Part shown: piece by piece, positions 1-42,000 of the stretch
How the letters are laid out: every line of letters begins with the position of its first letter
How positions within the stretch are numbered: the first letter of the stretch is position 1
From: Nemertoderma westbladi
Lineage: Eukaryota > Animalia > Xenacoelomorpha
NCBI GenBank assembly: GCA_032718475.1
Contig: JAUCBJ010008517.1
Coordinates: forward strand, 55,181 to 119,180
Direction of reading: 5' to 3'
DNA: 64,000 bases
Translations under genes and position numbers: made by a program
Notes under the pieces: generated by a model
Databases searched by the model: none
What the model saw: only the letters and a program-made list of their open reading frames with translations
What the model was told of the DNA's origin: nothing

Positions 1-3000
1 CTCTGTAAAACAAACAATATCGTAGAACGACAGAGAAACAACTCCTCTGTAAAACAAACAATATCGTAGAACGAAAGAAAAACAACTCCTCTGTAAAACA
101 AACAATATCGTAGAACGACAGAGAAACAACTCCTCTGTAAAACAAACAATATCGTAGAACGAAAGAGAAACAACTCCTCTGTAAAACAAACAATATCGTA
201 GAACGACAGAGAAACAACTCCTCCGTAAAACAAACAATATTGTAGAACGAAAGAAAAACAACTCCTCTGTAAAACAAACAATATCGTAGAACGAAAGAGA
301 AACAACTCCTCTGTAAAACAAACAATATCGTAGAATGAAAAAGAAACAACTCCTCTGTAAAACAAACAATATCGTAGAACGACAGAGAAACAACTCCTCT
401 GTAAAACAAACAATATTGTAGAACGAAAGAAAAACAACTCCTCTGTAAAACAAACAATATCGTAGAACGAAAGAGAAACAACTCCTCTGTAAAACAAACA
501 ATATCGTAGAACGAAAGAGAAACAACTCCTCTGTAAAACAAACAATATCGTAGAACGAAAGAGAAACAACTCCTCTGTAAAACAAACAATATTATAGAAA
601 GAAAGAGAAACAACTCCTCTGTAAAACAAACAATATCGTAGAACGAAAGAGAAACAACTCCTCTGTAAAACAAACAATATAGTAGAACGAAAGATAAACA
701 ACTCCTCTGTAAAACAAACAATATCGTTGAACGAAAGAGAAACAACTCCTCTGTAAAACAAACAATATCGTAGAACGAAAGAGAAACAACTCCTCTGTAA
801 AACAAACAATATCGTAGAACGAAAGAGAAACAACTCCTCTGTAAAACAAACAATATCGTAGAACGAAAGGGAAACAACTCCTCTGTAAAACAAACAATAT
901 AGTAGAACGAAAGAGAAACAACTCCTCTGTAAAACAAACAATATCGTAGAACGAAAGAGAAACAACTCCTCTGTAAAAGAAACAATATCGTTGAATGAAA
1001 GAGAAACAACTCCTCTGTAAAACAAACAATATCGTAGAACGAAAGAGAAACAACTCCTCTGTAAAACAAACAATATCGTAGAACGAAAGAGAAACAACTC
1101 CTCTGTAAAACAAACAATATAGTAGAACGAAAGAGAAACAACTCCTCTGTAAAACAAACAATATCGTAGAACGAAAGAGAAACAACTCCTCTGTAAAACA
1201 AACAATATAGTAGAACGAAAGAGAAACAACTCCTCTGTAAAACAAACAATATCGTTGTACGAAAGAGAAACAACTCCTCTGTAAAACAAACAATATCGTA
1301 GAACGAAAGAGAAATAACTCCTCTGTAACACAAACAATATCGTAGAACGAAAGAGAAACAACTCCTCTGTAAAACAAACAATATAGTAGAACGAAAGAGA
1401 AACAACTCCTCTGTAAAACAAACAATATGGTAGAACGAAAGAGAAACAACTCCTCTGTAAAACAAACAATATAGTAGAACAAAAGAGAAACAACTCCTCT
1501 GTAAAACAAACAATATCGTAGAACGAAAGAAAAACAACTCCTCTGTAAAACAAACAATATCGTAGAACGAAAGAGAAACAACTCCTCTGTAAAACAAACA
1601 ATATCGTAGAACGAAAGAGAAACAACTCCTCTGTAAAACAAACAATATCGTAGAACGAAAGAGAAACAACTCCTCTGTAAAACAAACAATATCGTAGAAC
1701 GAAAGAGAAACAACTCCTCTGTAAAACAAACAATATAGTAGAACGAAAGAGAAACAACTCCTCTGTAAAACAAACAATATCGTAGAACGAAAGAGAAACA
1801 ACTCCTCTGTAAAACAAACAATATAGTAGAACGAAAGAGAAACAACTCCTCTGTAAAACAAACAATATCGTAGAACGAAAGAGAAACAACTCCTCTGTAA
1901 AACAAACAATATCGTAGTATGAAAGAGAAACAACTCCTCTGTAAAACAAACAATATCGTAGAACGAAAGAAAAACAACTCCTCTGTAAAACAAACAATAT
2001 CGTAGAACGAAAGAAAAACAACTCCTCTGTAAAACAAACAATATCGTAGAACGACAGAGAAACAACTCTGTAAAACAAACAATATCGTAGAACGACAGAG
2101 AAACAACTCCTCTGTAAAACAAACAATATCGTAGAACGAAAGAAAAACAACTCCTATGTAAAACAAACAATATCGTAGAACGACAGAGAAACAACTCCTC
2201 TGTAAAACAAACAATATCGTAGAACGAAAGAGAAACAACTCCTCTGTAAAACAAACAATATCGTAGAACGAAAGAGAAACAACTCCTCTGTAAAACAAAC
2301 AATATAGTAGAACGAAAGAAAAACAACTCCTATGTAAAACAAACAATATCGTAGAACGACAGAGAAACAACTCCTCTGTAAAACAAACAATATCGTAGAA
2401 CAAAAGAGAAACAACTCTGTAAAACAAACAATATCGTAGAACGACAGAGAAACAACTCCTCTGTAAAACAAACAATATCGTAGAACGAAAGAAAAACAAC
2501 TCCTATGTAAAACAAACAATATCGTAGAACGAAAGAGAAACAACTCCTCTGTAAAACAAACAATATCGTAGAACGAAAGAAAAACAACTCCTATGTAAAT
2601 GTAAAACAAACAATATCGTAGAACGAAAGAAAAACAACTCCTATGTAAAACAAACAACATAGTAGAACGAAAGAAAAACAACTCCTATGTAAAACAAACA
2701 ATATCGTAGAACGACAGAGAAACAACTCCTCTGTAAAACAAACAATATCGTAGAACGAAAGAGAAACAACTCTGTAAAACAAACAATATCGTAGAACGAA
2801 AGAAAAACAACTCCTCTGTAAAACAAACAATATCGTAGAACGAAAGAGAAACAACTCCTCTGTAAAACAAACAATATCGTAGAACGAAAAAGAAACAACT
2901 CCTCTGTAAAACAAACAATATCGTAGAACGACAGAGAAACAACTCCTCTGTAAAACAAACAATATTGTAGAACGAAAGAAAAACAACTCCTCTGTAAAAC

Positions 3001-6000
3001 AAACAATATCGTAGAACGAAAGAGAAACAACTCCTCTGTAAAACAAACAATATCGTAGAACGAAAGAGAAACAACTCCTCTGTAAAACAAACAATATCGT
3101 AGAACGAAAGAGAAACAACTCCTCTGTAAAACAAACAATATTATAGAAAGAAAGAGAAACAACTCCTCTGTAAAACAAACAATATCGTAGAACGAAAGAG
3201 AAACAACTCCTCTGTAAAACAAACAATATAGTAGAACGAAAGAGAAACAACTCCTCTGTAAAACAAACAATATCGTTGAACGAAAGAGAAACAACTCCTC
3301 TGTAAAACAAACAATATCGTAGAACAAAAGAGAAACAACTCCTCTGTAAAACAAACAATATCGTAGAACGAAAGAAAAACAACTCCTCTGTAAAACAAAC
3401 AATATCGTAGAACGAAAGAGAAACAACTCCTCTGTAAAACAAACAATATAGTAGAACGAAAGAGAAACAACTCCTCTGTAAAACAAACAATATCGTAGAA
3501 CGAAAGAGAAACAACTCCTCTGTAAAACAAACAATATCATTGAATGAAAGAGAAACAACTCCTCTGTAAAACAAACAATATCGTAGAACGAAAGAGAAAC
3601 AACTCCTCTGTAAAACAAACAATATCGTAGAACGAAAGAGAAACAACTCCTCTGTAAAACAAACAATATAGTAGAACGAAAGAGAAACAACTCCTCTGTA
3701 AAACAAACAATATCGTAGAACGAAAGAGAAACAACTCCTCTGTAAAACAAACAATATAGTAGAACGAAAGAGAAACAACTCCTCTGTAAAACAAACAATA
3801 TCGTTGAACGAAAGAGAAACAACTCCTCTGTAAAACAAACAATATCGTAGAACGAAAGAGAAATAACTCCTCTGTAACACAAACAATATCGTAGAACGAA
3901 AGAGAAACAACTCCTCTGTAAAACAAACAATATAGTAGAACGAAAGAGAAACAACTCCTCTGTAAAACAAACAATATGGTAGAACGAAAGAGAAACAACT
4001 CCTCTGTAAAACAAACAATATAGTAGAACAAAAGAGAAACAACTCCTCTGTAAAACAAACAATATCGTAGAACGAAAGAAAAACAACTCCTCTGTAAAAC
4101 AAACAATATCGTAGAACGAAAGAGAAACAACTCCTCTGTAAAACAAACAATATCGTAGAACGAAAGAGAAACAACTCCTCTGTAAAACAAACAATATCGT
4201 AGAACGAAAGAGAAACAACTCCTCTGTAAAACAAACAATATCGTAGAACGAAAGAGAAACAACTCCTCTGTAAAACAAACAATATAGTAGAACGAAAGAG
4301 AAACAACTCCTCTGTAAAACAAACAATATCGTAGAACGAAAGAGAAACAACTCCTCTGTAAAACAAACAATATAGTAGAACGAAAGAGAAACAACTCCTC
4401 TGTAAAACAAACAATATCGTAGAACGAAAGAGAAACAACTCCTCTGTAAAACAAACAATATCGTAGTATGAAAGAGAAACAACTCCTCTGTAAAACAAAC
4501 AATATCGTAGAACGAAAGAAAAACAACTCCTCTGTAAAACAAACAATATCGTAGAACGAAAGAAAAACAACTCCTCTGTAAAACAAACAATATCGTAGAA
4601 CGACAGAGAAACAACTCTGTAAAACAAACAATATCGTAGAACGACAGAGAAACAACTCCTCTGTAAAACAAACAATATCGTAGAACGAAAGAAAAACAAC
4701 TCCTATGTAAAACAAACAATATCGTAGAACGACAGAGAAACAACTCCTCTGTAAAACAAACAATATCGTAGAACGAAAGAGAAACAACTCCTCTGTAAAA
4801 CAAACAATATCGTAGAACGAAAGAGAAACAACTCCTCTGTAAAACAAACAATATAGTAGAACGAAAGAAAAACAACTCCTATGTAAAACAAACAATATCG
4901 TAGAACGACAGAGAAACAACTCCTCTGTAAAACAAACAATATCGTAGAACGAAAGAGAAACAACTCTGTAAAACAAACAATATCGTAGAACGACAGAGAA
5001 ACAACTCCTCTGTAAAACAAACAATATCGTAGAACGAAAGAAAAACAACTCCTATGTAAAACAAACAATATCGTAGAACGAAAGAGAAACAACTCCTCTG
5101 TAAAACAAACAATATCGTAGAACGAAAGAAAAACAACTCCTATGTAAAACAAACAATATCGTAGAACGAAAGAAAAACAACTCCTATGTAAAACAAACAA
5201 CATAGTAGAACGAAAGAAAAACAACTCCTATGTAAAACAAACAATATCGTAGAACGACAGAGAAACAACTCCTCTGTAAAACAAACAATATCGTAGAACG
5301 AAAGAGAAACAACTCTGTAAAACAAACAATATCGTAGAACGAAAGAAAAACAACTCCTATGTAAAACAAACAATATCGTAGAACGACAGAGAAACAACTC
5401 CTCTGTAAAACAAACAATATCGTAGAACGAAAGAGAAACAACTCTGTAAAACAAACAATATCGTAGAACGACAGAGAAACAACTCCTCTGTAAAACAAAC
5501 AATATCGTAGAACAAAAGAAAAACAACTCCTATGTAAAACAAACAATATCGTAGAACGAAAGAGAAACAACTCCTCTGTAAAACAAACAATATCGTAGAA
5601 CGAAAGAAAAACAACTCCTATGTAAAACAAACAATATAGTAGAACGAAAGAAAAACAACTCCTATGTAAAACAAACAATATCGTAGAACGACAGAGAAAC
5701 AACTCCTCTGTAAAACAAACAATATCGTAGAACGAAAGAGAAACAACTCTGTAAAACAAACAATATCGTAGAACGACAGAGAAACAACTCCTCTGTAAAA
5801 CAAACAATATCGTAGAACGAAAGAAAAACAACTCCTATGTAAAACAAACAATATCGTAGAACGACAGAGAAACAACTCCTCTGTAAAACAAACAATATCG
5901 TAGAACGAAAGAAAAACAACTCCTATGTAAAACAAACAATATCGTAGAACGACAGAGAAACAACTCCTCTGTAAAACAAACAATATCGTAGAACGAAAGA

Positions 6001-9000
6001 AAAACAACTCCTCTGTAAAACAAACAATATCGTAGAACGACAGAGAAACAACTCCTCTGTAAAACAAACAATATCGTAGAATGAAAGAGAAACAACTCCT
6101 CTGTAAAACAAACAATATCGTAGAACGACAGAGAAACAACTCCTCTGTAAAACAAACAATATCGTAGAATGACAGAGAAACAACTCCTCTGTAAAACAAA
6201 CAATATCGTAGAACGACAGAAAAACAACTCCTCTGTAAAACAAACAATATCGTAGAACGACAGAGAAACAACTCCTCTGTAAAACAAACAATATCGTAGA
6301 ACGAAAGAAAAACAACTCCTCTGTAAAACAAACAATATCGTAGAACGACAGAGAAACAACTCCTCTGTAAAACAAACAATATCGTAGAACGAAAGAGAAA
6401 CAACTCCTCTGTAAAACAAACAATATCGTAGAACGACAGAGAAACAACTCCTCCGTAAAACAAACAATATTGTAGAACGAAAGAAAAACAACTCCTCTGT
6501 AAAACAAACAATATCGTAGAACGAAAGAGAAACAACTCCTCTGTAAAACAAACAATATCGTAGAACGAAAAAGAAACAACTCCTCTGTAAAACAAACAAT
6601 ATCGTAGAACGACAGAGAAACAACTCCTCTGTAAAACAAACAATATTGTAGAATGAAAGAAAAACAACTCCTCTGTAAAACAAACAATATCGTAGAACGA
6701 AAGAGAAACAACTCCTCTGTAAAACAAACAATATCGTAGAACGAAAGAGAAACAACTCCTCTGTAAAACAAACAATATCGTAGAACGAAAGAGAAACAAC
6801 TCCTCTGTAAAACAAACAATATTATAGAAAGAAAGAGAAACAACTCCTCTGTAAAACAAACAATATCGTAGAACGAAAGAGAAACAACTCCTCTGTAAAA
6901 CAAACAATATAGTAGAACGAAAGAGAAACAACTCCTCTGTAAAACAAACAATATCGTTGAACGAAAGAGAAACAACTCCTCTGTAAAACAAACAATATCG
7001 TAGAACGAAAGAGAAACAACTCCTCTGTAAAACAAACAATATCGTAGAACGAAAGAGAAACAACTCCTCTGTAAAACAAACAATATCGTAGAACGAAAGA
7101 GAAACAACTCCTCTGTAAAACAAACAATATAGTAGAACGAAAGAGAAACAACTCCTCTGTAAAACAAACAATATCGTAGAACGAAAGAGAAACAACTCCT
7201 CTGTAAAACAAACAATATCGTTGAACGAAAGAGAAACAACTCCTCTGTAAAACAAACAATATCGTAGAACGAAAGAGAAACAACTCCTCTGTAAAACAAA
7301 CAATATCGTAGAACGAAAGAGAAACAACTCCTCTGTAAAACAAACAATATAGTAGAATGAAAGAGAAACAACTCCTCTGTAAAACAAACAATATCGTAGA
7401 ACGAAAGAGAAACAACTCCTCTGTAAAACAAACAATATAGTAGAACAAAAGAGAAACAACTCCTCTGTAAAACAAACAATATCGTTGAACGAAAGAGAAA
7501 CAACTCCTCTGTAAAACAAACAATATCGTAGAACGAAAGAGAAACAACTCCTCTGTAAAACAAACAATATCGTAGAACGAAAGAGAAACAACTCCTCTGT
7601 AAAACAAACAATATAGTAGAACGAAAGAGAAACAACTCCTCTGTAAAACAAACAATATGGTAGAACGAAAGAGAAACAACTCCTCTGTAAAACAAACAAT
7701 ATCGTAGAACGAAAGAGAAACAACTCCTCTGTAAAACAAACAATATCATTGAATGAAAGAGAAACAACTCCTCTGTAAAACAAACAATATCGTAGAACGA
7801 AAGAGAAACAACTCCTCTGTAAAACAAACAATATCGTAGAACGAAAGAGAAACAACTCCTCTGTAAAACAAACAATATAGTAGAACGAAAGAGAAACAAC
7901 TCCTCTGTAAAACAAACAATATCGTAGAACGAAAGAGAAACAACTCCTCTGTAAAACAAACAATATAGTAGAACGAAAGAGAAACAACTCCTCTGTAAAA
8001 CAAACAATATCGTTGAACGAAAGAGAAACAACTCCTCTGTAAAACAAACAATATCGTAGAACGAAAGAGAAATAACTCCTCTGTAACACAAACAATATCG
8101 TAGAACGAAAGAGAAACAACTCCTCTGTAAAACAAACAATATAGTAGAACGAAAGAGAAACAACTCCTCTGTAAAACAAACAATATGGTAGAACGAAAGA
8201 GAAACAACTCCTCTGTAAAACAAACAATATAGTAGAACAAAAGAGAAACAACTCCTCTGTAAAACAAACAATATCGTAGAACGAAAGAAAAACAACTCCT
8301 CTGTAAAACAAACAATATCGTAGAACGAAAGAGAAACAACTCCTCTGTAAAACAAACAATATCGTAGAACGAAAGAGAAACAACTCCTCTGTAAAACAAA
8401 CAATATCGTAGAACGAAAGAGAAACAACTCCTCTGTAAAACAAACAATATCGTAGAACGAAAGAGAAACAACTCCTCTGTAAAACAAACAATATAGTAGA
8501 ACGAAAGAGAAACAACTCCTCTGTAAAACAAACAATATCGTAGAACGAAAGAGAAACAACTCCTCTGTAAAACAAACAATATAGTAGAACGAAAGAGAAA
8601 CAACTCCTCTGTAAAACAAACAATATCGTAGAACGAAAGAGAAACAACTCCTCTGTAAAACAAACAATATCGTAGTATGAAAGAGAAACAACTCCTCTGT
8701 AAAACAAACAATATCGTAGAACGAAAGAAAAACAACTCCTCTGTAAAACAAACAATATCGTAGAACGAAAGAAAAACAACTCCTCTGTAAAACAAACAAT
8801 ATCGTAGAACGACAGAGAAACAACTCTGTAAAACAAACAATATCGTAGAACGACAGAGAAACAACTCCTCTGTAAAACAAACAATATCGTAGAACGAAAG
8901 AAAAACAACTCCTATGTAAAACAAACAATATCGTAGAACGACAGAGAAACAACTCCTCTGTAAAACAAACAATATCGTAGAACGAAAGAGAAACAACTCC

Positions 9001-12000
9001 TCTGTAAAACAAACAATATCGTAGAACGAAAGAGAAACAACTCCTCTGTAAAACAAACAATATAGTAGAACGAAAGAAAAACAACTCCTATGTAAAACAA
9101 ACAATATCGTAGAACGACAGAGAAACAACTCCTCTGTAAAACAAACAATATCGTAGAACGAAAGAGAAACAACTCTGTAAAACAAACAATATCGTAGAAC
9201 GACAGAGAAACAACTCCTCTGTAAAACAAACAATATCGTAGAACGAAAGAAAAACAACTCCTATGTAAAACAAACAATATCGTAGAACGAAAGAGAAACA
9301 ACTCCTCTGTAAAACAAACAATATCGTAGAACGAAAGAAAAACAACTCCTATGTAAAACAAACAATATCGTAGAACGAAAGAAAAACAACTCCTATGTAA
9401 AACAAACAACATAGTAGAACGAAAGAAAAACAACTCCTATGTAAAACAAACAATATCGTAGAACGACAGAGAAACAACTCCTCTGTAAAACAAACAATAT
9501 CGTAGAACGAAAGAGAAACAACTCTGTAAAACAAACAATATCGTAGAACGAAAGAAAAACAACTCCTATGTAAAACAAACAATATCGTAGAACGACAGAG
9601 AAACAACTCCTCTGTAAAACAAACAATATCGTAGAACGAAAGAGAAACAACTCTGTAAAACAAACAATATCGTAGAACGACAGAGAAACAACTCCTCTGT
9701 AAAACAAACAATATCGTAGAACAAAAGAAAAACAACTCCTATGTAAAACAAACAATATCGTAGAACGAAAGAGAAACAACTCCTCTGTAAAACAAACAAT
9801 ATCGTAGAACGAAAGAAAAACAACTCCTATGTAAAACAAACAATATAGTAGAACGAAAGAAAAACAACTCCTATGTAAAACAAACAATATCGTAGAACGA
9901 CAGAGAAACAACTCCTCTGTAAAACAAACAATATCGTAGAACGAAAGAGAAACAACTCTGTAAAACAAACAATATCGTAGAACGACAGAGAAACAACTCC
10001 TCTGTAAAACAAACAATATCGTAGAACGAAAGAAAAACAACTCCTATGTAAAACAAACAATATCGTAGAACGACAGAGAAACAACTCCTCTGTAAAACAA
10101 ACAATATCGTAGAACGAAAGAAAAACAACTCCTATGTAAAACAAACAATATCGTAGAACGACAGAGAAACAACTCCTCTGTAAAACAAACAATATCGTAG
10201 AACGAAAGAAAAACAACTCCTCTGTAAAACAAACAATATCGTAGAACGACAGAGAAACAACTCCTCTGTAAAACAAACAATATCGTAGAATGAAAGAGAA
10301 ACAACTCCTCTGTAAAACAAACAATATCGTAGAACGACAGAGAAACAACTCCTCTGTAAAACAAACAATATCGTAGAATGACAGAGAAACAACTCCTCTG
10401 TAAAACAAACAATATCGTAGAACGACAGAAAAACAACTCCTCTGTAAAACAAACAATATCGTAGAACGACAGAGAAACAACTCCTCTGTAAAACAAACAA
10501 TATCGTAGAACGAAAGAAAAACAACTCCTCTGTAAAACAAACAATATCGTAGAACGACAGAGAAACAACTCCTCTGTAAAACAAACAATATCGTAGAACG
10601 AAAGAGAAACAACTCCTCTGTAAAACAAACAATATCGTAGAACGACAGAGAAACAACTCCTCCGTAAAACAAACAATATTGTAGAACGAAAGAAAAACAA
10701 CTCCTCTGTAAAACAAACAATATCGTAGAACGAAAGAGAAACAACTCCTCTGTAAAACAAACAATATCGTAGAACGAAAAAGAAACAACTCCTCTGTAAA
10801 ACAAACAATATCGTAGAACGACAGAGAAACAACTCCTCTGTAAAACAAACAATATTGTAGAATGAAAGAAAAACAACTCCTCTGTAAAACAAACAATATC
10901 GTAGAACGAAAGAGAAACAACTCCTCTGTAAAACAAACAATATCGTAGAACGAAAGAGAAACAACTCCTCTGTAAAACAAACAATATCGTAGAACGAAAG
11001 AGAAACAACTCCTCTGTAAAACAAACAATATTATAGAAAGAAAGAGAAACAACTCCTCTGTAAAACAAACAATATCGTAGAACGAAAGAGAAACAACTCC
11101 TCTGTAAAACAAACAATATAGTAGAACGAAAGAGAAACAACTCCTCTGTAAAACAAACAATATCGTTGAACGAAAGAGAAACAACTCCTCTGTAAAACAA
11201 ACAATATCGTAGAACGAAAGAGAAACAACTCCTCTGTAAAACAAACAATATCGTAGAACGAAAGAGAAACAACTCCTCTGTAAAACAAACAATATCGTAG
11301 AACGAAAGAGAAACAACTCCTCTGTAAAACAAACAATATAGTAGAACGAAAGAGAAACAACTCCTCTGTAAAACAAACAATATCGTAGAACGAAAGAGAA
11401 ACAACTCCTCTGTAAAACAAACAATATCGTTGAACGAAAGAGAAACAACTCCTCTGTAAAACAAACAATATCGTAGAACGAAAGAGAAACAACTCCTCTG
11501 TAAAACAAACAATATCGTAGAACGAAAGAGAAACAACTCCTCTGTAAAACAAACAATATAGTAGAATGAAAGAGAAACAACTCCTCTGTAAAACAAACAA
11601 TATCGTAGAACGAAAGAGAAACAACTCCTCTGTAAAACAAACAATATAGTAGAACAAAAGAGAAACAACTCCTCTGTAAAACAAACAATATCGTTGAACG
11701 AAAGAGAAACAACTCCTCTGTAAAACAAACAATATCGTAGAACGAAAGAGAAACAACTCCTCTGTAAAACAAACAATATCGTAGAACGAAAGAGAAACAA
11801 CTCCTCTGTAAAACAAACAATATAGTAGAACGAAAGAGAAACAACTCCTCTGTAAAACAAACAATATGGTAGAACGAAAGAGAAACAACTCCTCTGTAAA
11901 ACAAACAATATAGTAGAACAAAAGAGAAACAACTCCTCTGTAAAACAAACAATATCGTAGAACGAAAGAAAAACAACTCCTCTGTAAAACAAACAATATC

Positions 12001-12845
12001 GTAGAACGAAAGAGAAACAACTCCTCTGTAAAACAAACAATATCGTAGAACGAAAGAGAAACAACTCCTCTGTAAAACAAACAATATCGTAGAACGAAAG
12101 AGAAACAACTCCTCTGTAAAACAAACAATATCGTAGAACGAAAGAGAAACAACTCCTCTGTAAAACAAACAATATAGTAGAACGAAAGAGAAACAACTCC
12201 TCTGTAAAACAAACAATATCGTAGAACAAAAGAGAAATAACTCCTCTGTAAAACAAACAATATCGTAGAACGAAAGAGAAACAACTCCTCTGTAAAACAA
12301 ACAATATAGTAGAACGAAAGAGAAACAACTCCTCTGTAAAACAAACAATATCGTAGAACAAAAGAGAAATAACTCCTCTGTAAAACAAACAATATCATAG
12401 AACGAAAGAGAAACAACTCCTCTGTAAAACAAACAATATAGTAGAATGAAAGAGAAACAACTCCTCTGTAAAACAAACAATATAGTAGAACGAAAGAGAA
12501 ACAACTCCTCTGTAAAACAAACAATATAGTAGAACGAAAGAGAAACAACTCCTCTGTAAAACAAACAATATAGTAGAACGAAAGAGAAACAACTCCTCTG
12601 TAAAACAAACAATATCGTAGAACGAAAGAGAAACAACTCCTCTGTAAAACAAACAATATCGTAGAACGAAAGAGAAACAACTCCTCTGTAAAACAAACAA
12701 TATAGTAGAACGAAAGAGAAACAACTCCTCTGTAAAACAAACAATATAGTAGAACGAAAGAGAAACAACTCCTCTGTAAAACAAACAATATAGTAGAACG
12801 AAAGAGAAACAACTCCTCTGTAAAACAAACAATATCGTAGAACGA
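1..12845 (-). repeat. 44-bp tandem satellite (~290 copies, open at window start) inside a mitoguardin intron; unit = 3' splice site plus start of the next MIGA exon
   Basis: Plus-strand unit is CTCTGTAAAACAAACAATATCGTAGAACGAAAGAGAAACAACTC. On the minus strand it reads ttgtttgttttacag|AGGAGTTGTTTCTCTTTCGTTCTACGATA. Occasional 41-bp variants occur. Confidence 0.97.
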
Positions 12846-12894
12846 GGAAAGAAACTACTCATATAACTCCTAAGTATTAGACTAACCGACTAAC

Positions 12895-13146
12895 CTGTAA
12901 GCTAATTCCTCCTCCAAAGTGCCCCAATGGGAGATGTCCTCACAATATCGTATCAAGTCCTTATAGGCTGATATAAATGCTGAGTAATTGGGCCCATCCC
13001 ACAATAGACCTCCCACCAATCGGGAACCTAGTTCAGTGAACCATGAGCGGTTGCTTGGAGACGAGAATACAATACGGAATGCAGCACGGAGACAGTACAC
13101 CTTGGCTAGGAAATCGATATCAGAAAGACAACCAACCAAACTGGTT
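12895..13146 (-). CDS. MIGA: MIGA coding exon 7 (start of C-terminal lipid-binding domain)
   Basis: Acceptor ttgtattctag|A and donor TACAG|gttagt. Translates RTSLVGCLSDIDFLAKVYCLRAAF...WGTLEEELAYR. Confidence 0.92.
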
Positions 13147-16100
13147 CTAGAATACAAAATAATAGTTAATCATAAGCAAAGAAAAAATTGTTTGAAGGCT
13201 TCTGACTATTATACCAGCGCACAGAATCAATTTCAGCATAATGTGTATTCACAAGCTTTTTGTATCAAATAGTAGCCCGACCCCAAACTGTAAGATTTAG
13301 TTTTATGTAAGAACCCTTGTCATAATGACCACATACGAAATTGGTGGGTAAATTTTATGCACCAACACCAATGGTATTCTTATCTATAAATACTAAATGT
13401 TATTCAGAATTTTGTGCAAAATAAATCCCACTTATAATTATAATTAACTCTGTTGGATATGAATGGATTGCTTACTTGGTCGTGACAAGCAGGATGTTGA
13501 ATGTAAAATGAGTACAGCGAATAGAGAGAACACCTCATATAAATTATGTATTCCTTTCCGGTAAATCTCGCGGCAAAAACCGACTCATTATTTTGCATAA
13601 TTAGCTTATATTCCCAGGGGTTTGTTTGTATTAAAGAAGGGAAAATACAAAGGTTATGAAAGTAATTACAGGGGTTACAAAGGCTTTTATAAAACCTAAT
13701 CACGAGTAATACAAAATATGTCTTCTAAAAATTACAATAAAAATAAATAAATTGTGGTTGAGCTTAAAATGAACGTGCAATGCAAGTTAATAATATTAAA
13801 AAAAGGTATATAAACAGTATAGTAAATAATAATAAAACAAAGTATAAAATATTATTGTATTAAATAATAATAAAATTGTTCATAGTTTTGGAATAAAAAA
13901 ATTTAGAACCACGTAATGGGGGTGGGGGGGGGGGGGGGTAAAACTAAAGTGATCGTGTGAAACACGAAACACCAAAGCCAACCCGAAGGCTCCTTTCTTT
14001 TGGTTGTTGCCTATAATACAGGATGGGTGCCGTCATTATACCGTATTGGGTTTGCATTAGTGTTTAAACGGGATCAGACTTTGGGGATCGCGACCGGGAT
14101 TATCACTCTCGGGATCCCGTATCCAGCCCAATCCCGATCTTGGGATCGGGATTGCAATTTTGGATTAAATTCCTTAAGTTATTAGTATATGTGGCGGGTT
14201 TTGGGTATTACTCACTTTATTTTACACCTCTGAAATATTAGTAAGATAAAGTTATATTAAAATATCTTATAATTGATTACTGGGTGGTTTACTGAAATAA
14301 AAATTAGATATAATCAAAACATTTCCTTTCTGCTGGAACTATTTATCGGATATTCAATATATTTACTTCACTATTTTTACTTCTGGATCCCGTTCCAAAA
14401 AAGTCGGGATCGGGATTGCATTTTTCGCCGGGATCGCGGTATTTCGGTTGCGGGATCCCCTTTATTAAACACTAAAGTTTGCATAACACTAAGTCGAAAG
14501 AGTTTTGCTTAGGGACACTACTGTGCGAAATTTCTACAGCCTTTGGTCGGATTTGAACGCGCTGTATCCACACGACAGACAATATCCTATAACTTAACTA
14601 TACCTAAATATGCGGCAAGGTACAGCATCGCGTGTTGCCATATCAACGCCTTCCTGGTAGAGCAGCAGTGGTGCGTTGTAGACAACCTGCTGCTCCCAGA
14701 TAGAGAAGTCAACGGCAGAAACGAACGAGTCTTTATCTGAGGTGAGTTCGAGATCGGTGTGTCCTGAATCGTCCAACATTAGGTTTCGGAATGTGGAGGT
14801 TGTTGTGTCTTCCAGAATACCGTGGGTTTCCCATTCCTCCTGTAAAAAAACAATATCATGTTTCCCTTTAAAACATATGTGAGGTGTTTAAACGGGATCA
14901 CGGCGAAAAATGCAATCCCGGTCCCGATCCCAATCCCGAATTTTTTGGACCGGGATCCCGAAGTAAAAATAGTAAATATATTGAATATCCGATAAATAGT
15001 TCCAGCAGAAAGGAAATGTTTTAATATTATCAAATTTTTATGTCAGTAAACCATCCAGTAATCAACATCAACATAATTTTAATATAACTTTATCTTACTA
15101 ATAATATTTCAGAGGTGTAAAAACTAAAAAGTGAGTGTTACCCAAAACCCGCCACAATGTGGCGGGTATATGTAGCGGCGCCACATATACTATTAACGTT
15201 AAGGAATGTAATCCAAAATTGCAATCCCGGTCCCGAGAAACGGTATCCCGAGTGATAATCCCGGTCCCGATCCCGGAAATCACGAAATGTCTGATCCCGT
15301 TTAAACACTAATATGTTAGTCCCATTTCAGGATTATGTTGTAAACCGAAATATATGGCAATCCTAAAAAGTAATACTTTACACCCCATGCAGACTGTTTC
15401 AAGCTTTATACCTAAGCATAGATAACTAAGATGAGATATTATATGTAACTGCGGCTACTGCGTTGAGTATAAGTTGTTTATCAGTCGAAGTTTGAGCGTC
15501 CTTGGTAAAGTAAAATAAACTCAATTCTTACATATTATCTTTATCACGCGTGAAAGAAAGTGACAGAGTCTTTAACAAATACAATACAATTAATATTCAA
15601 ATGAATAGGTTACAACCACAGACTCTTATAAAGTTACAACTATATAATACTCACTAATGAGCAGCTGTGGGTTGAAGCTGCACAAACCTGCAATGAATAT
15701 GCCACAGACAACAATCTGGAAAGTTTCTCAGAGAGCTGGTTACCACCATCTCCATAGCAACCAATAGAATGAGCGCGTTGTAAAGAATTAAGGGCGTCCT
15801 CCCAGGATTGTATCACTGTACGAAGGGCGATGACGCCTTTCCTAGCGAGGTCATCTGGGTCACCAATTGGAACTGTAATTAAAAAACAATTAATATAATA
15901 CGTGCGGATATAATTATAATTAGGTTTGGTATTTCGGTTAGAGATTGTTAATCAGGCACAAACACTGATTAATATTTGTGACACCATTGGAATTCGTTTG
16001 ATATTTAAGCTGTATGAATGTACTTGGTAGGTGTATTGTATTAACTAAAAACGTATGTTGGATAAAGTGTATGAGTACCACACGGATGTACCACACAAGT

Positions 16101-19100
16101 ACCACAACGTTATTAGTTGGCGCTAAAGTATAGTGAATTTAATATACCTCACCTTTTGGTCAGATATTTCGGATAACACAAACTAATAAATTAACTAATA
16201 CGAGATTGTTAAACTTTTATCTTTATAGTTTGGTCAATCAACTAACTCCTGCTTCCAACGTCAGTGACTGTGCTAGCCGAACTATCCGAGTTCCTTTGAC
16301 CGCGGCTAGATGGCGCTCTAGGAACGGGGTCTACGTAGGCTGAAGGGCGAACCGGGGACTCTGTGGTGGAAGACCTCTGAGAATGACCAACAAGGGGGTT
16401 AAACGGCTTCCTAGGAACGCTAGACGCACCTGAAGTGAAAGTAATGTGGTCAGGTAATACAGTGTACTTGTATATTTTGTTGTAATAAAGGAGTCAGTGC
16501 AATAATAGTTATTCAAATACAGCCGGGGGTTCTCGACGCTAACAAAATTCATTCCCCCTCTCCAGGGGAAAAACTACGATAATAACAGCTGGTTACTCCC
16601 AAAAATAAAACTGTAACCTGTACTATTGAATTTAGTTTATTGTTTTGGTTAGAATAACGTGGCATTGTACCTGCTCTGCTCCTTTCCCTAAGTTGATAAT
16701 TAGCAGAAACGGGATTTCTCTCATAAACCGCCTCTCTTTTAGTCTTTGTCTCTAAAATGTATGTATACGTAAAATATATATGTCGGAAAATATGATAATA
16801 TTCAAATAACTGCTGTGTGCCGCTGTGATGGTGTCTATATAATAATAACAACTAATAGCGTCATTTATTACCATGGTGACAGACAGATTGTAGTCTACTA
16901 TCTTTAGTAAACTGTAGTGATGCAGGATAATCAGTTGCGCCATCTAGTGGTGTGCGTTGGTAGTTACTATCGCCCTTTCGTTCCCTGACCGAACAAGAAT
17001 GACCGATGAACTCGAGCTCGCTATTAAATCGGTTAATAATATGCTGGAAGACGCTCGGCTCTAATGCGGGATAACCGTCGGAAAGAGACGACGTTTCGGT
17101 GACCTCACTGTCTGGGTAATAGGTCTGCGAGGCAGAAACAGAGCTGGAATCCATGGTAACAATGCTGATATCCGTGGGAGCAGTGCTTGGATTCGTGTAT
17201 CGCACTGAGTGTTTGCGACTAAATGGAATAACATACTTGTTAATATCCTTTACTGACTCAATGACGTCACTAACTTCAGCCTTACTGTAAACCGATTCAC
17301 ATCTAACGACCGCATCCTCAATAAGTTTGAGTTTATCCTCTACAATGATCGTCTGTTTCCATAACAACAACTGAAACTCTGTAGACTCCTCGGTGACACG
17401 GGATAGTTCCCTCAACTGCAGCAGGTATTTGGTGAAGAGAGTGGCCTCCAGTCGGTCGAAGCGGTTTAGTATGTTCTGGTAGATGTCCTGAGTAGAGTAA
17501 AAGTTCACAAGGTCGGGAAGCAGAGCGTTGGTGTCAGGGCAGTCCGATATCGGTGGAGAAATACCGGCGGAGTCGGATATCAAATGTGGAATATCCCTGT
17601 CTGCAGAGTCGAATATCAAGTGAGACATATCTCTGTTTGGAGTCCCAGGTTTCAAGTGAGACATATCTCTGTTTGGAGTACCAGGTATCAAGTGAGACAT
17701 ATCTCTGTCTGGAGTACCAGGTATCAAGTGAGCCATATCTCTGTCTGGAGTACCAGGTATCAAGTGAGACATATCTCTGTCAGTACCAGGTATCAAGTCA
17801 GACATATCTCTGTCTGGAGTACCAGGTATCAAGTTAGACATATCTTTGTCTGGAGTACCAGGTATCAAGTTATGAAAACAAATTAAGAAAACCTTCGTTT
17901 GCAGATTCGTATGTCAAGGTAACAAGATACTCAGCATCCATTCCATATGATTCATACATGAATAATCTCGCCAACCACAATATAAGGTAATATGGACTAG
18001 CGTTCAGAGAGATTCATATAACTTAACGTACGATTAAGTTATTATTGTAACTTAATATAACACAAGAAAATAAATACCCAGAAATATAGTTACTCAAACT
18101 CAGAAAAGCAATAACGACTATATAAATTATATACCTCCTCCGCCTTTCTGATTACCAACATATGCTGCTCAATTCAACTACACTAGTCGGGATTAGCTCC
18201 GTTTGAGGCTACTACACTACATACATCCCTGAGTTCATCTAACACATCTTGATTGTAAACATGACGAGAATTGATGCCAATAATGTTAAATATCCAAAGA
18301 CAAGTGAAGTTTGCAGATAGGGGAAACTGGACGCAAATAACAGATGATTACTCTCAAAAATAAAACTGTAACATGTTCTATTGTGCTTAGTTTATTGTTT
18401 TGGTTAAAATGACGTGCCACTGTAACCTGCTCCTTTCAACAAATTGAGAATTTAACATTGAGGCGGGATATTAATTCGCCAAGGCGGGTTATGCGTCCAG
18501 TTCCCCCCCCCCCCCCCCCCTGTCTCGAAGTTTGATATGGGAGGTTGGAGCAACCTTTGGTCGTCACGTTATGACGGTCATTCAGCAGTATCGCAAATAC
18601 TGCTGAGTGATTTGTAAAATTGTATAAAAATGTACAATTTTTGCCAATAACAAATAAAAATTTTTGTCAAAAACAAAAATAATGAATAATAAAGTAAGGA
18701 AAGGATAACGGTTTTGCTTTTACAACTACCTACAGAGCTACACGGCCCCCTCGGGCCCTCACCCCAAAACCATGTATCAACAAGTTCGGTCATTTTGAGA
18801 AGAACGCAGGAGGCCTGACTTTTATATTGAATTATACGTACTATCGGCCAATTTATTGCAAAAATTAAATATATATTGATATTACTTTTTTGAATTTTCA
18901 CAATAGCAGCTTATATGAAGCTAAGTTGGGAATGCTTGGTTTTGGCATGAAAGTTTTACATAATTTAGTAGAAAATTTAAATTATTTTAATTCAAAACCG
19001 TCTATCTGCATTGTTGTTATATTATTATTTGCTGTAATATTATTGTTATATAGTTTTAAAAGGTCTTACCCAATTCAGTTTATAACCGCCTGTTGATAAT

Positions 19101-21546
19101 ATGAGTTAACAATAATTATAAAACCTTTTCGCAGTTCATCCCTCCGGTTCTCCATCCTACCCAACATTCAGGTCCTTGACTCGAACTACGGACTTCGTAT
19201 TATACCACCACGCTCGTTGAGTTAGAGGCATAAAGTCAGCAAGTTCCTTGACAATGGATAGTTTCTATAAATTACTGCTTATTCCGCGTTCAACGCAATT
19301 CATGTTAGGTATTTCATTTGTAAAACCGTAACACTAATATTCTATTCGCCAAAACGTGTGATGTATGACATATGGCATGACCCCTTTACAAACTTGACTT
19401 CGACAATGTCCGCCAGATGAGGAATTAATTAATTAATAATTAATTACTTCAAAAAGTCTTACCGGTATGTTTTTTAAAGCTCTTATTTCTATTGGGAACA
19501 TAGGGAAATACTAATGCATTTGTTTTGGTTACATTCAGCCATTCTGTAACCTTGGATTTTAGTGTGTAAACTGTAAAGTAAAATATAACGGCAGAAAGTC
19601 CGATATATATTTCACGTGGGCCATTTTACTAGAAACATGTAGCACTGCGGTTAATCAATTGTTGTCTAAGAACTATTTCTCATTAACTTACTTTCGATAT
19701 CCGTTACAGGTAGCCGCTTATTCCCGTACCATATCGATTGCCCGACGAGACTCACTCACTATGGTTAATCAATAAAATTGGACCAATCAACCTACAGATA
19801 ATACCACGAACTCCTTTAACTAAGCAAATCCTGACGGAGGTTTAATCCCTGAAATTTAATTATAATCCGGTCTTATCTAACCCACACCACACCAATCTAG
19901 TAATAATATATCATTTTAATACTGTGAATGAATGCAATGACATATTTAATTAATATTAATATGATATTTTGTCTGTATTTATTAACGTCTAGCGCCAATT
20001 TCATCATCACATACCCTTTTTTAGTGCAAAATTTAAGAAAACAATGTCACATTATTTTGGATTTGGATCACGTAATAGCGACGTTAATCTTATTATATAT
20101 TTTGTGGTTCAAATAATTTATTGTACACAACAAAATGAAAAAGGTACCAAACAACAAAAAATTCGGTAATTTATAAACATTTATCTCAAACGACACAAAT
20201 GGTATAAAATTTGCTACATCAAATTAATTACAAAAAACGTATATATTTCATTTTAAATGTTTTTGATGAGCCAAACACCACACACACGTGAATAAAAAAT
20301 TTTGGGATTATAAAGAAATCTATATATTGGTATTCAATTTTGAATGTCACACATTTTGTTTAAATTGCAAAATATAACATAAACAAGTTAAATAAACAGA
20401 AAAAAGCCGTAGACATTCCGCAACTGACACATTTCGCCAAATGGGAGGCATTATCAGGAGCCTCAAGCTACCTGTCCTGGAGAGGCGGTGACGTATAGTA
20501 CATAAGTCCAACAAGCGGGTTTTGTTTTGTTGTAGAGCATGTACGTACTTGTACTTACTTGTTACCGTGACAACGCTGCTCGCCCTAGACGACAGGGCAT
20601 AGGGTCTGCGGGAGACCCCACTGGGGAGCACCTGCCTCGATTTAACGTTACCATCGCGACCAGGGAACACCTCCAACCAGGGCTTACCGACACTAGATCG
20701 CTGGCGACGCCGCCTGCGGGAGGCAATGGAATAAACAAGTTATCACTAAATTATCTTATAAACTGCGACTTTAATCACAAAATATACAGTTAATATTAAT
20801 TTCAACGAATTCTTGCAATTGTATCGCTTCAGATTATACCTAATTTTTATCAGTTCTTCTGAGTGCAAGAGATATAACATGGGACCATCTTCAGCTTTTA
20901 ACTATCAGCTTGGGATCTACAAAGTGACTCCTGTTTCTTTTTACATATTTTTTATTGTTATTTCTCAGACTTACATATTTCTTTTAAACTTGCTGCACTG
21001 ACGCAGATTGGCTCGTATAAATCACCACAAACACTTCATTATCGATATCAACAACACCACAGAAAAAACACCAGATTTAATTGCTGTATTTGCATGTCTA
21101 AATACCTTGAACCTTCTTGAAGGCTTGTCTTGACACACTTAAGAGTTCTCTTCAGGTAAAAATTGGTAATTACTTTGGGGATTACCTTCAACCCTAAATA
21201 GCTATGATGAAGCGAATGTTGACTGATTCTGACGGTCCAATGGTACGTCATTATCATTACCTTAATGAGTCTTAAGATTGCCTTAATATTCACCAGTTTT
21301 TCATCACAAGTTTAAAAATATCACAAATTTATGTTATAAACTTACAAAATAAACTTACTTTATTCATTCAAATTTATATAAAAACAAAGAAGATACTGAC
21401 CTCCACACTAGGTAGGGTGCTACTACGACGGCGACTACGGAAACCATTACAGGAATGTGTCGCGGTTTCGTGGCTTTTATGTATCCCCATAGTAACCAAT
21501 GCAAAGTTTTAATCTGACCAATCAAATTTGAGTATTGCGTGGACAT
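12895..21546 (-). CDS. MIGA: Mitoguardin (MIGA/FAM73)-like gene, spliced, 3' part outside window; exons 21546-21401, 20713-20559, 17849-16872, 16429-16247, 15872-15688, 14839-14604, 13146-12895
   Basis: All junctions are GT-AG with matching phases (2,1,1,1,0,2,2). N-terminal hydrophobic segment followed by RRRR. Motifs WEDAL, EKLSRLLSVAYSLQEE, DSFVSA, VPCRIFRTSLVGCLSDIDFLAKVYCLRAAF and EEELAYR resemble mitoguardin as I recall it (no database search run). Confidence 0.9.
14058..14474 (+). mobile_element. Non-autonomous hAT-like MITE, copy 1
   Basis: Termini TAGTGTTTAA...TTAAACACTA, many subterminal CGGGAT/ATCCCG motifs, near-duplicated flank GTTTGCAT. Confidence 0.75.
14604..14839 (-). CDS. 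MIGA: MIGA coding exon 6 with FFAT-like motif
   Basis: Acceptor ttttttacag|GAG and donor TTTAG|gtatag. Translates EEWETH...ELTSDKDSFVSAVDF...LYQEGVDMATRDAVPCRIFR. Confidence 0.92.
14883..15310 (-). mobile_element. Non-autonomous hAT-like MITE, copy 2, inverted relative to copy 1
   Basis: Termini GTGTTTAAACGGGATC...GATCCCGTTTAAACACTA. Interior is the reverse complement of 14058-14474. ATATGT occurs on both flanks. Confidence 0.75.
15688..15872 (-). CDS. MIGA: MIGA coding exon 5
   Basis: Acceptor ttttttaattacag|TT and donor CAG|gtttgt. Translates PIGDPDDLARKGVIALRTVIQSWEDALNSL...LSEKLSRLLSVAYSLQ. An alternative in-frame donor (gtgagt) follows 15655. Confidence 0.88.
16247..16429 (-). CDS. MIGA: MIGA coding exon 4 (Ser/Pro-rich linker)
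   Basis: Acceptor tttcacttcag|GT and donor AGGA|gttagt. 183 nt, phase 1-1, open frame ASSVPRKPFNPLVGHSQRSS...VTDVGSR. Confidence 0.75.
16872..17849 (-). CDS. MIGA: Putative large MIGA exon 3 (978 nt, symmetric phase 1-1) with N-terminal 12-aa repeats
   Basis: Lies within the 335-aa ORF 16861-17868. Acceptor tactccag|AC and donor CATG|gtaata match neighbouring phases. No homology recognised, and the true acceptor is ambiguous. Confidence 0.6.
17600..17870 (-). repeat. 36-bp tandem repeat (~7 copies; MSHLIPGTPDRD) overlapping the exon-3 acceptor
   Basis: Plus-strand unit GTATCAAGTGAGACATATCTCTGTCTGGAGTACCAG. One unit is 33 bp. Confidence 0.9.
20559..20713 (-). CDS. MIGA: MIGA coding exon 2
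   Basis: Acceptor cctcccgcag|G and donor ACAA|gtaagt. Translates RRRRQRSSVGKPWLEVFPG...SSRASSVVTVT. Confidence 0.8.
21401..21546 (-). CDS. MIGA: MIGA first coding exon with transmembrane anchor
   Basis: Acceptor aatacag|TCATG and donor TGGAG|gtcagt. Translates MSTQYSNL...IPVMVSVVAVVVAPYLVWR. Confidence 0.8.
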
Positions 21547-39000: not shown

Positions 39001-42000
39001 TGGACGTTAATGCCCTGATCTATTTATATTTTATTTGTAGGGTGGTGTGGTGCGGGGTGTGTACTACTCTGTGAGTTCTGTGTTTGTTTGGAGTTGTGGA
39101 GTGACTAAGTGAGTACAGTACTAAATAAAGCGTTGACCTAACCCACTCTCTTACATAATTCCTGTGTGGTCAATATCAATGTACACATATTTTTCTATGT
39201 TATTGAGAAAGTGGTACATTTTCACTTTTAGATAAATCTAGGATAGGTGGAATTTGTGACAATACCCAAAACTTATGACAACTCTCAACCACAGTTTGTT
39301 ATCACCGTTTTTGGGTGTTGTCACAAATGCCACCTATCCATAAATATAAAATATGGCAAGGTACACGTCCGATTTATATTTGATAATAAAATATAGAATG
39401 ATTTACATAGATGGTTATATATATATATTAATAATAAATAAAGTATGTTATCATTAAACAATAAATCCTGTGTTACTGCTGGTGAATAATACCTATAACT
39501 TAATTCACTCTTTCGATTTGTAATTTCGCATGTGACTGACTGCACCACACCCTATTTACCTATTTACAATTTTTATATCATATAATATAATGTATCCTGC
39601 TATGACGACCACATTCTGTCCAATCCCTCGAAATTTTACCTTCGAATATTAATTACATCACCATATCGCCCGCCCACCTTTCAGTTATATTTCTCTATTT
39701 AATCCCAATTGCTATTAATCAATTATTGATTACCTCCAATAATATAGGCAGTCGGGTTTATTACTCCTCAGGCTAATCCTATTATTATACCTCCATATCC
39801 TTCACTCATTACAGCTTAATGATTCTGGTGCGAGTCAGGACAGTGAGCCATCTGCGAACGCTTATAATTAGACTAGAACTGCCTTCCTAATGATTGTGGG
39901 GGTGTGTGTGATTATGTAGGTAACTAATAATTACGGCTTCTAACACGATGGGATTTTGCGGGATACGCTGTTGTTATGATTAAAGCTGTTAGTTGTGGCT
40001 ACATTTCTGTTGAATGTAGGAAGGCCTCAGAAATCGAGACATGTACGTTCGTAGATGTTTCCCTCCATCAGTCCCTCGTTAAAGTTTAAAGGCTAATATA
40101 TTGGAGTCGCTTTTACATCATGCTAAAGACCATAGATGTAACCAACTGTACAGTTCATGTGATACGCAATATCCGCTTATGAATTATGAGGCGGTTATCA
40201 TAGCAAATAAACATACTCACTCACCCGACGTCATTATTTTTTTAATATCACGTTCTCTTTCAAATTTTAACTTTAATTGTCCAGTTTTTGTTTGTTTAAT
40301 ATTGCTTTGCCTACGTGTGTTTGCTTAGATGTAATAGTTACACATCTCGGGCTGTTCTTGCTAAATGGAATGGGGCAATCGCGATAAATCGCCTCCTACG
40401 TATCTCCCGTACAAATCTCTGAAGGCTCTTCTCACTTACGTCATGAATACGTAATGGGCTTCAAAGCGATGTCGTGCTGTATAAACCGAACCCCATTAAT
40501 GCAGTAATGCAATTATCTTGAGAACGGTTCGAGAAAGAGCTTGTAAGTTCGCGCGCGGAATGTTAAGGAACGGAGTAATCGCTATATCGCCACACAGCCC
40601 GATTACTAATCCGCTACGGAAGAAGGAAAAGTCAAATTAAAATGATTTCTCAACTGATCAGGTGCTTCACTAATATTATATAGGCTATACAGGCGCATCG
40701 ATAACCCCGCCACACGCGGCCCAGTAACTATTTCCTTTTACTAAGCGAAACATAACAGCATGAGTTAGAGTTACTACAGTAAGTTAGATGATAATAGTTA
40801 AATCATTTACTGCAGAAAACTTCACTCCTTGGAATATGTGGAAGATTTAACTACCGAAGTTTGTGGGTCTTTGTTAATTATTTTCAGTAAATGAAATACA
40901 GCTGGGCTGATAGTGATAATGGAACTGTAATAAATTATATTTTTGATATAACTTTGTTCAGAATCATGAAGCATGTCACAGGCGGTTGAACCAGCGCTAT
41001 ACGCGCGTTTCGGATTGTTAGGCCTCATCAGTTGTAGTGCTCAAATCCAATTCATTAAATTAATATCACCTGGCTGCAATACTCGAGCTGAATATTTATT
41101 TATTAGTACTTTCCTCCTGTTTCACTCTAACATACTTGAGGCCGGTAGGTCCGCTGTTAGAGATAGGATATGCAATTTATGACTGCCTGTTCTATAGAAG
41201 TGGACCATGACCTACTAAATATATCTTTAGTAGGTCATGAGTGGTCTAAATACGTATATAAAGTCAGTGTCAGTGTCAAGCCAATGTCAGAGGAAAGTGG
41301 CTCAACTGGTGAACCGTTACTGAAGATGCATAATATCCATCAATATCATTCATCAACAATTTAGTGGGTCAGAGTAAAACGCGGATCCGGATCCGCGTTT
41401 TACACCTTCCCCAATTTAGTGTATGCCGTACTTCTGAATTTACTGTCTTACAAGAGTGGTAAACCATAGTTTATATGAGTAATGTCTACGTTTTGTTAAT
41501 GTTTGTTTGTTTATTTTAGTATCCGGATATTAATGTTTGTTTGTTTATTTTTGTATCCGGATATTAATGTTTGTTTGTTTATTTTAGTATCCGGATATTA
41601 ATGTTTGTTTGTTTATTTTAGTATCCGGATATTAATGTTTGTTTGTTTAAAATTTTAGTATCCGGATATTAATGTTTGTTTGTTTATTTTAGTATCCGGA
41701 TATTAATGTTTGTTTGTTTATTTTAGTATCCGGATATTAATGTTTGTTTGTTTATTTTAGTATCCGGATATTAATGTTTGTTTGTTTATTTTAGTATCCG
41801 GATATTAATGTTTGTTTGTTTGTTTTAGTATCCGGATATTAATGTTTGTTTGTTTATTTTAGTATCCGGATATTAAAGTTTGTTTGTTTATTTTAGTATC
41901 CGGATATTAATGTTTGTTTGTTTATTTTAGTATCCGGATATTAATGTTTGTTTGTTTATTTTAGTATCCGGATATTAATGTTTGTTTGTTTATTTTAGTA

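Follow-up and report, generated by a model that had tools for sequence, protein, structure and literature searches.

A mirage minisatellite spanning an intron-exon boundary in a mitoguardin gene of Nemertoderma westbladi

A mitoguardin gene of Nemertoderma westbladi carries a real 'mirage' minisatellite, an array whose tandem units span the host gene's own intron-exon boundary. The array occupies one end of the window, the whole 64,000-nucleotide stretch analyzed here. The content of its unit, the phase and register in which that unit splices, its copy number, an internal block duplication, the neutral drift of its copies, and a complete second case next door are probably best explained together by tandem amplification of a 44-base piece, an acceptor-like tract plus the first 34 bases of the next exon, within what is likely a single intron of more than 12.8 kb. 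We predict that the array's terminal unit, which falls outside the window, is the authentic exon.

Six exons of our mitoguardin gene model, with intact splice sites, lie upstream of the array and join into 352 stop-free codons:

12895..13146, minus strand: 252-nt mitoguardin exon next to the array, in phase 2 on both sides
14604..14839, minus strand: upstream mitoguardin exon (Pfam match and gene model)
15688..15872, minus strand: upstream mitoguardin exon (gene model)
16247..16429, minus strand: upstream model exon, low-complexity region (splice sites and frame only)
20559..20713, minus strand: upstream model exon, basic stretch (gene model)
21401..21447, minus strand: putative first coding exon, hydrophobic N-terminus (inferred)

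The exon at 13146-12895 matches the Pfam family Miga (PF10265; E 3.3e-19, profile positions 310-392 of 540) and mitoguardin 1 in the PDB (E 1e-13), and the Pfam score of 69.7 bits, against a curated cut-off of 25, places the gene in the mitoguardin family. A word-index search with this exon among longer proteins returned 25 candidates, none significant. An earlier sequence-only reading had numbered it exon 7; in our model it is the sixth coding exon, and the seventh only if a putative upstream exon near 22564-22375 is counted. Roughly 150 amino acids of mitoguardin are missing from the model, and none of the 3056 stop-to-stop stretches in the window outside the array passes profile position 340.

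The array and the large blocks within it are as follows:

1..12860, minus strand: 44-bp tandem array, unit consisting of an acceptor-like tract and 34 nt of mitoguardin coding sequence
7660..11911, minus strand: higher-order block of 96 units, identical over all 4252 nt to a block 4209 nt away
3451..7702, minus strand: exact copy of the 96-unit block (lag 4209)

The array contains at least 293 copies (TRF: period 44, 293.0 copies, 95% matches), in agreement with the satellite of about 290 acceptor-plus-exon-start copies first described, and it continues past the window edge. The exact 4252-nt duplicate may reflect recent amplification or an assembly duplication; if the latter, the copy count within the window could be about 197 rather than 293. 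Among the 292 complete units, 278 are 44 nt long, 13 are 41 nt, and one is 50 nt, and 36 distinct unit types are present. The triplet at the acceptor position is CAG in 260 of 293 copies, CAT in 30, and CGG in 3; the splice signal is thus retained by most units and broken in 33. No copy of the unit occurs elsewhere in the window, down to a 14-mer match. The 95% matches, the 96-unit block, and a decayed copy at the edge amount to concerted evolution with diverged edge units. The copies drift neutrally, without coding constraint: the variant types comprise 5 of 26 possible synonymous and 11 of 73 possible non-synonymous changes, and an Asp that is near-invariant in the family (53 of 54 homologues) is missing from 66 of the 292 units.

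Phase-2 splicing from the exon to the unit yields the 12 residues that come next in homologues, scoring 35.1 bits on a position-specific matrix built from 55 of 98 homologues (at least 280 amino acids, two repetitive hits dropped). This score is higher than that of 34 of the 52 scorable homologues. None of 5000 shuffled units, each taken at the best of 88 registers, comes near it (maximum 9.1), nor do the 102,124 registers taken from elsewhere in the window (maximum 6.2); the match is therefore not due to chance. It stops directly after Asp-Ile-Val (residue 12), from where per-position scores are negative. The proposal that the unit joins an acceptor-like tract to the opening codons of the mitoguardin exon that is missing, with phase and register both exact, is thus upheld, and the motif that had been placed after the exon is indeed present in the homologues we fetched. 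Reading through the donor, or splicing to either of the two other AG sites of the unit, was also considered, and fits the family profile less well (93.9-98.5 bits, vs 120.4).

At the junction of exon and array, the donor at 12894 agrees with the consensus at 8 of 9 positions, and three segments follow:

12872..12894, minus strand: 23 nt without demonstrated unit origin, containing the donor and a short donor duplicate 8 nt further on
12834..12871, minus strand: zero-th, decayed exon-start copy that lacks an intact acceptor (local score 41.5, reached by 0 of 5000 shuffles)
12818..12833, minus strand: first intact decoy acceptor, ending at 12818

Compared with the acceptor part of the unit, the 23-nt stub gives no significant match (1919 of 5000 shuffles), and we rejected it as a decayed unit. 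The array had been taken to begin about 50 bp past the exon; array-derived sequence in fact begins 23 nt after the donor. Of the 77-nt intron proposed between donor and first acceptor (12818-12894), the distance is correct, but no original intron is preserved there: the decayed exon-start copy accounts for 38 of the 77 nt (12871-12834). Additionally, the ATTGTT hexamer invoked in a microhomology proposal has no surviving independent intronic copy, its first copy already following exon-derived sequence. In two samples, a single contig with a depth like that of the flanks runs from the exon into the beginning of the array (X1, 12816-14116; X2, 12825-13936), and over the exon only one base differs. 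A point against the main reading is that depth ratios at the repeat edge exceed 1000-fold in X1 and X2 (1590 and 1089) but reach only about 25 in X3, where coverage is patchy; these depths do not give a copy number.

Two mirage arrays stand in neighboring genes of this one window. The second, complete within the window, belongs to a synaptotagmin-like gene:

41496..42010, plus strand: mirage array, 34-bp unit x 15, acceptors intact in 14 of 15
41999..42119, plus strand: real exon entered by the last 34-bp unit, start of the second C2 domain (synaptotagmin-7, residues 154-186 of 6ank_A, E 2.6e-6)

The exon at 41999..42119 joins in frame to exons ending at 38056 and starting at 53372. All 14 upstream copies lead to a stop and the last alone gives the C2 exon, so that here the authentic exon is the terminal unit. 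Neither modelled gene has a further mirage among the window's six remaining long arrays, which are 458-4103 nt away from any exon edge of the models. One mirage among seven non-focal arrays, in a window of which 40% is tandem repeat, is too little to claim a genome-wide bias of arrays towards mirages.

The mitoguardin gene might instead be broken, its 3' exons cut off by amplification or rearrangement, or the window edge might be an assembly break or mis-join, leaving the array as debris. The lack of 3' mitoguardin exons within the window, the exact 4.2-kb duplicate inside the array, and the fact that the window starts and ends inside satellites are all compatible with this, but the six open exons with intact splice sites, the exon-array junction recovered in contigs of two samples with only one differing base on the exon, and the intact mirage next door make it unlikely.

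If the mitoguardin array is a mirage within a working intron, it would have grown by slippage and unequal exchange, and the repeat itself would have no function. Its decoys would be skipped because they have no usable downstream donor (exon definition), with only the terminal copy or near neighbors chosen. GT sites within the unit match 2-4 of 9 donor-consensus positions, against 5-8 of 9 for the real donors of the two gene models, one of which was left out of the comparison. Tolerance of the array is less easy to explain than in the synaptotagmin-like case. The 44-nt consensus unit has no stop codon in any frame, and of 231 pairs of intact acceptors separated by three units, 207 keep the frame open without a stop; a transcript mis-spliced to every third decoy would therefore escape a premature stop.

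This openness, together with a median of 279 codons from decoy to first stop and a hydrophobic insert (GRAVY 1.02), raises the alternative that decoys are used, acceptors three units apart giving isoforms, either regulated or tolerated, whose lipid-binding domain carries extra hydrophobic blocks of 44 residues. We consider this very improbable: the copies show no coding constraint, the insert would interrupt the solved C-terminal domain, and the open frames may follow from the A-poor composition of the strand, with selection unnecessary. Acceptors regularly spaced along a very long intron could also serve as recursive-splicing ratchet points for its stepwise removal, but the acceptor is followed by AG and not GT, no donor is regenerated, and the internal GT sites match only 2-4 of 9 positions, which renders this scarcely credible.

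Comparison with relatives places the intron itself at an unusual position. The motif was visible in 34 of the 48 relatives' loci examined. Eight of the 34 have an intron at the motif, in all cases in phase 0 two codons into it (both sites seen in 7), and the remaining 26 are contiguous (cDNA or intronless); none has an intron in the Arg codon. The array intron thus lies 4 nt upstream of the site used in all eight intron-bearing loci, a novel position of the kind tandem-duplication intron gain calls for, as judged against distant relatives only. Such a lineage-specific position implies that gain or movement of the intron either preceded the amplification or coincided with it.

The array may be a record of the intron's birth, a possible though doubtful scenario: the ancestral intron 4 nt away would have been lost, about 40 nt of uninterrupted coding DNA tandemly duplicated, and a donor would have arisen at the first copy, so that the copies between became an intron that ballooned to more than 12.8 kb, in which nearly all the sequence repeats the intron's own exon and every third decoy is stop-free and in frame. 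In addition to the non-ancestral position, the unit runs uninterrupted over the ancestral intron site and encodes Gly there, the commonest family residue (28 of 52); under simple sliding this residue would have had to evolve anew. Moreover, all but 23 nt of the visible intron derive from the unit, whereas eight other introns measured have 374-11252 nt of such independent sequence. The flanking exon surely supplies 34 of the unit's 44 nt and possibly 40, because exon and acceptor end in the same 6 nt, which allows 40 of the 44 nt to be taken as one continuous coding stretch; the shared hexamer, however, is found at the end of 3 of 10 other acceptors in the window as well and is therefore weak evidence for intron birth. 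The spliced junction, furthermore, is AG|AG, and the duplicated exon segment has no AGGT (AG/GY) proto-splice site of the kind required by the model (PMC3443670), so a donor would have had to appear independently, with the 44-nt frameshift in place meanwhile. The best relative found shares 48% identity, over a part only, which is too distant to date the shift, and the read-through proteins P0006 and P0072 may hint at another position in other lineages.

The mitoguardin array offers a natural test bed for how the spliceosome chooses one acceptor among hundreds of near-identical ones. With the consensus unit free of stops, the products of mis-splicing are expected to persist, so that long-read cDNA should allow them to be counted. 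An origin of the intron by duplication, if real, would give a concrete example for the mirage-to-new-intron model, proposed as hypothetical in PMC3087553. Such exons are also liable to be mis-joined by gene predictors and short-read aligners.

The array had been treated as unprecedented, but its kind is known. Minisatellites of this type were named 'mirages' and described in amphioxus, in the globins BflGb6 and BflGb9, Adh3, troponin C, and PGBD5 (PMC3087553, PMC3902484), and both papers report them without disturbance of splicing. A literature search, with most subscription journals outside its scope, returned no report of a mitoguardin repeat or of an acceptor array this size. As described there, amphioxus mirages resemble the mitoguardin array in being tandem copies of an intron's 3' end and exon start, in that many but not all copies keep the splice signal, and in edge units that escape homogenization; the 44-bp unit falls inside the quoted range of 10-160 bp. 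The mitoguardin array is far larger, with at least 293 copies vs 3-6 quoted for BflGb6, and its intron would lie 4 bases off the relatives' position. Unlike the lancelet cases, it has higher-order blocks, almost no unique intron DNA on the visible side, and a non-ancestral intron position; normal splicing was shown there by RT-PCR and is predicted here. The human literature holds two further parallels. In the 37-bp VNTR of F7 intron 7, the terminal element of a minisatellite likewise spans the exon-intron border and identical pseudo-sites are silent, but the donor is repeated and its first site used, whereas here the acceptor is repeated and the last is predicted to be used (PMC1557585). In CBS 844ins68, an intron/exon junction is likewise duplicated at an exon start and the distal site preferred, although this is a polymorphism with one extra copy of 68 bp (PMC2630376). 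Finally, near intron pairs and the gain of introns through tandem genomic duplication (PMC3443670, PMC2891723) share with the mitoguardin array an intron no more than 32 nt from an older position and, possibly, an intron made of copies of neighboring exon sequence; the mitoguardin array differs from such gain in having no AGGT at the junction and in comprising hundreds of copies, not one.

The array running from 1 to 12860 has a period of 44 bp and 293.0 copies with 95% matches (Tandem Repeats Finder), in agreement with the sequence-only reading of a satellite exceeding 12.8 kb with about 290 copies; its left end lies beyond the window edge. There are 36 unit types, and the triplet at the acceptor position (minus strand) is CAG in 260 of 293 units, CAT in 30 and CGG in 3. 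The array also has a higher-order pattern: a block of 96 units recurs 4209 nt further on, identical over 4252 nt (11911-7660), and a third, diverged block comes after it. The exact repeat reflects either an amplification that is very recent or a duplication made in assembly.

The array adjoins one exon of the host gene, mitoguardin:

13146-12895, minus strand: mitoguardin exon adjoining the array, 252 nt, phase 2 at both ends

This exon matches positions 310-392 of 540 in the Pfam Miga profile (E 3.3e-19) and the solved chains of mitoguardin 1 (E 1e-13) and mitoguardin 2 (E 8e-13). Together with five upstream exons it gives 352 stop-free codons, leaving about 150 residues still lacking, and apart from the array the window has 3056 stop-to-stop stretches, none of which matches the Miga profile past the exon's end point. 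Among the best matches, the named homologues are those of lancelet, hydrozoan, hagfish and sea urchin, at about 40% identity; no close relative of the host animal was among those found. Elsewhere in mitoguardin introns, 14004-14560 and 14865-15356 hold interspersed, high-depth repeats in inverted, MITE-like arrangement, with related copies, by eye, near 43255-43340 and 44410-44500. Another mitoguardin intron feature is a 349-codon open stretch on the same strand as the gene (16864-17910, minus), which carries a 36-bp coding-like repeat in 7 copies; its sole profile match, to FAM47, is sub-threshold, and it may be a nested gene or a mobile-element ORF.

What the repeated unit encodes was assessed against 98 homologues from a profile search, of which 55 (280 aa or more, two repetitive matches dropped) were aligned without the window sequence. 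Past the exon match, full-length homologues continue with Arg-Gly-Val, four variable residues, and Phe-Tyr-Asp-Ile/Val-Val-Leu-Asp-Phe, the continuation that the sequence-only reading had given. A phase-2 splice to the consensus unit yields a peptide whose 12 positions score 35.1 bits; 34 of the 52 scorable homologues score lower. The runner-up among the unit's 88 registers scores -15.5, none of 5000 shuffled units reaches 35.1 (maximum 9.1), and the same test on the remainder of the window peaks at 6.2. This splice raises the HMM score from 93.9 to 120.4 bits, against 93.9-98.5 for read-through and the unit's other two AG sites, and the family match breaks off abruptly past residue 12. Given the peptide score, the nulls and the sharp end of the match, mitoguardin coding sequence accounts for 34 of the unit's 44 nt, and the claim that each unit holds the next exon's start in the right phase is upheld.

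The further claim, that an original intron survives as the 77 nt before the first acceptor, does not hold: within them, 12871-12834 derives from the exon start as a decayed copy (0/5000 shuffles). The microhomology put forward in that reading is thus left with no intronic partner for comparison. Only 23 nt of the intron stretch lack a demonstrated unit origin; eight other measured introns span 374-11252 nt. A duplicate donor-like site lies 8 nt past the donor (12894-12880, minus; 6 of 9 consensus positions) in a different phase.

Contigs from three sequencing runs were compared over 12774-16450. Those of X1 (12816-14116, depth 36.9) and X2 (12825-13936, depth 29) lead from unique DNA through the exon and on into the beginning of the array, at flank-like depth. 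At the repeat edge the depths add up to values more than 1000-fold higher in X1 and X2, and about 25-fold in the patchy X3. Because X1 or X2 may have supplied the window itself, the junction has at best one independent sample. At position 12992, the first position of a Pro codon, X1 differs by one exon base.

In a scan of metagenome contigs (n=48 related loci), the downstream motif is present in 34, contiguous (cDNA or intronless) in 26 and interrupted by an intron in 8. All eight introns are phase 0, before the motif's third residue (donor and acceptor both visible in 7), and none falls within the Arg codon; the N. westbladi intron is therefore displaced 4 nt upstream relative to one that is widely shared, and the two make a near intron pair as PMC2891723 uses the term. 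Of the 14 loci without the motif, three have a donor at this phase-0 position too, and the upstream phase-2 intron position is identical to that of N. westbladi in 6 of 6 loci checked. The read-through ends of the homologue proteins P0006 and P0072 suggest that some relatives may have a third intron position, phase 1 in the second motif residue.

The unit runs unbroken through the ancestral site, coding the family's commonest residue there, which would favour loss plus gain over sliding. A specific version, in which the ancestral intron was lost and a tandem coding duplication became the new one, would account for the non-ancestral position, the uninterrupted unit and the identical last 6 nt of exon and acceptor (nine other introns share 0-3, a tenth 4, by eye). 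We nevertheless consider it unlikely: 3 of 10 other acceptors finish with the same hexamer, PMC3443670 cautions that repeats of this sort are no commoner beside new introns than beside old ones, and this junction lacks the AGGT site on which the classical duplication model depends.

The array copies show signs of drift. Their exon-like part has 5 synonymous variant types and 11 non-synonymous ones, a ratio near the possible 26:73, and an Asp constant in 53 of 54 homologues is altered in 66 of 292 units. GT sites within the unit agree with 2-4 of 9 donor-consensus positions and real donors with 5-8; internal acceptor copies would thus fail exon definition and be skipped. A role for these decoys as ratchet points was rejected because what follows the acceptor is AG. 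The consensus unit is stop-free in every frame, and of 231 pairs of intact acceptors spaced three units from each other, 207 keep the frame and contain no stop, which would add a hydrophobic 44-residue block; both count against easy tolerance of the array.

A second, complete array of this kind, a mirage (a minisatellite of tandem copies of an intron's 3' end and the next exon's start), lies in a synaptotagmin-like gene identified by its C2 domains:

41496-42010, plus strand: mirage, 34-bp unit x15, AG intact in 14
41999-42119, plus strand: real exon opened by the last unit, start of the second C2 domain (synaptotagmin-7, E 2.6e-6)

The exon links in frame to its neighbours. All 14 upstream copies reach a stop and only the last opens the exon; the copies carry one common change relative to it. 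The same genome thus shows the anatomy predicted for the mitoguardin array. The window's eight long arrays cover 40% of it, and one of the seven non-focal ones is a mirage, too few to show a bias. Two minisatellites, 34845-36990 (63-bp x34) and 46222-48546 (40-bp x57), lie in introns of the synaptotagmin-like gene away from exon edges. A 23-bp satellite (56728-64000, 316 copies) continues past the right window edge; its plus strand has an acceptor-like pyrimidine-AG, while the last unit, read on the minus strand, enters a short open stretch and then a stop. A gene beyond the window could thus have a third mirage here. Translated fragments at 23850-24680, 25905-26873 and 55617-55940 resemble the end of a LINE reverse transcriptase, and 43690-44145 (minus) resembles a hAT-type transposase fragment.

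The mitoguardin array is real and, we judge, likely to be a mirage whose last unit, beyond the window, is predicted to be the real exon. Tandem duplications of an intron's 3' end and exon start are described in amphioxus globin and Adh3 genes, with 3-6 units in BflGb6, unaffected splicing, and new introns put forward as a hypothetical outcome (PMC3087553); further mirages are given for troponin C and PGBD5 (PMC3902484), and human parallels are the F7 VNTR (PMC1557585) and CBS 844ins68 (PMC2630376). No mitoguardin-locus repeat or acceptor array this large was found in the literature searched, which lay mostly outside the subscription journals. Set beside these systems, the array is a very large variant of the mirage with two extra features: its intron is shifted in position and has hardly any DNA unique to it, and its unit is stop-free.
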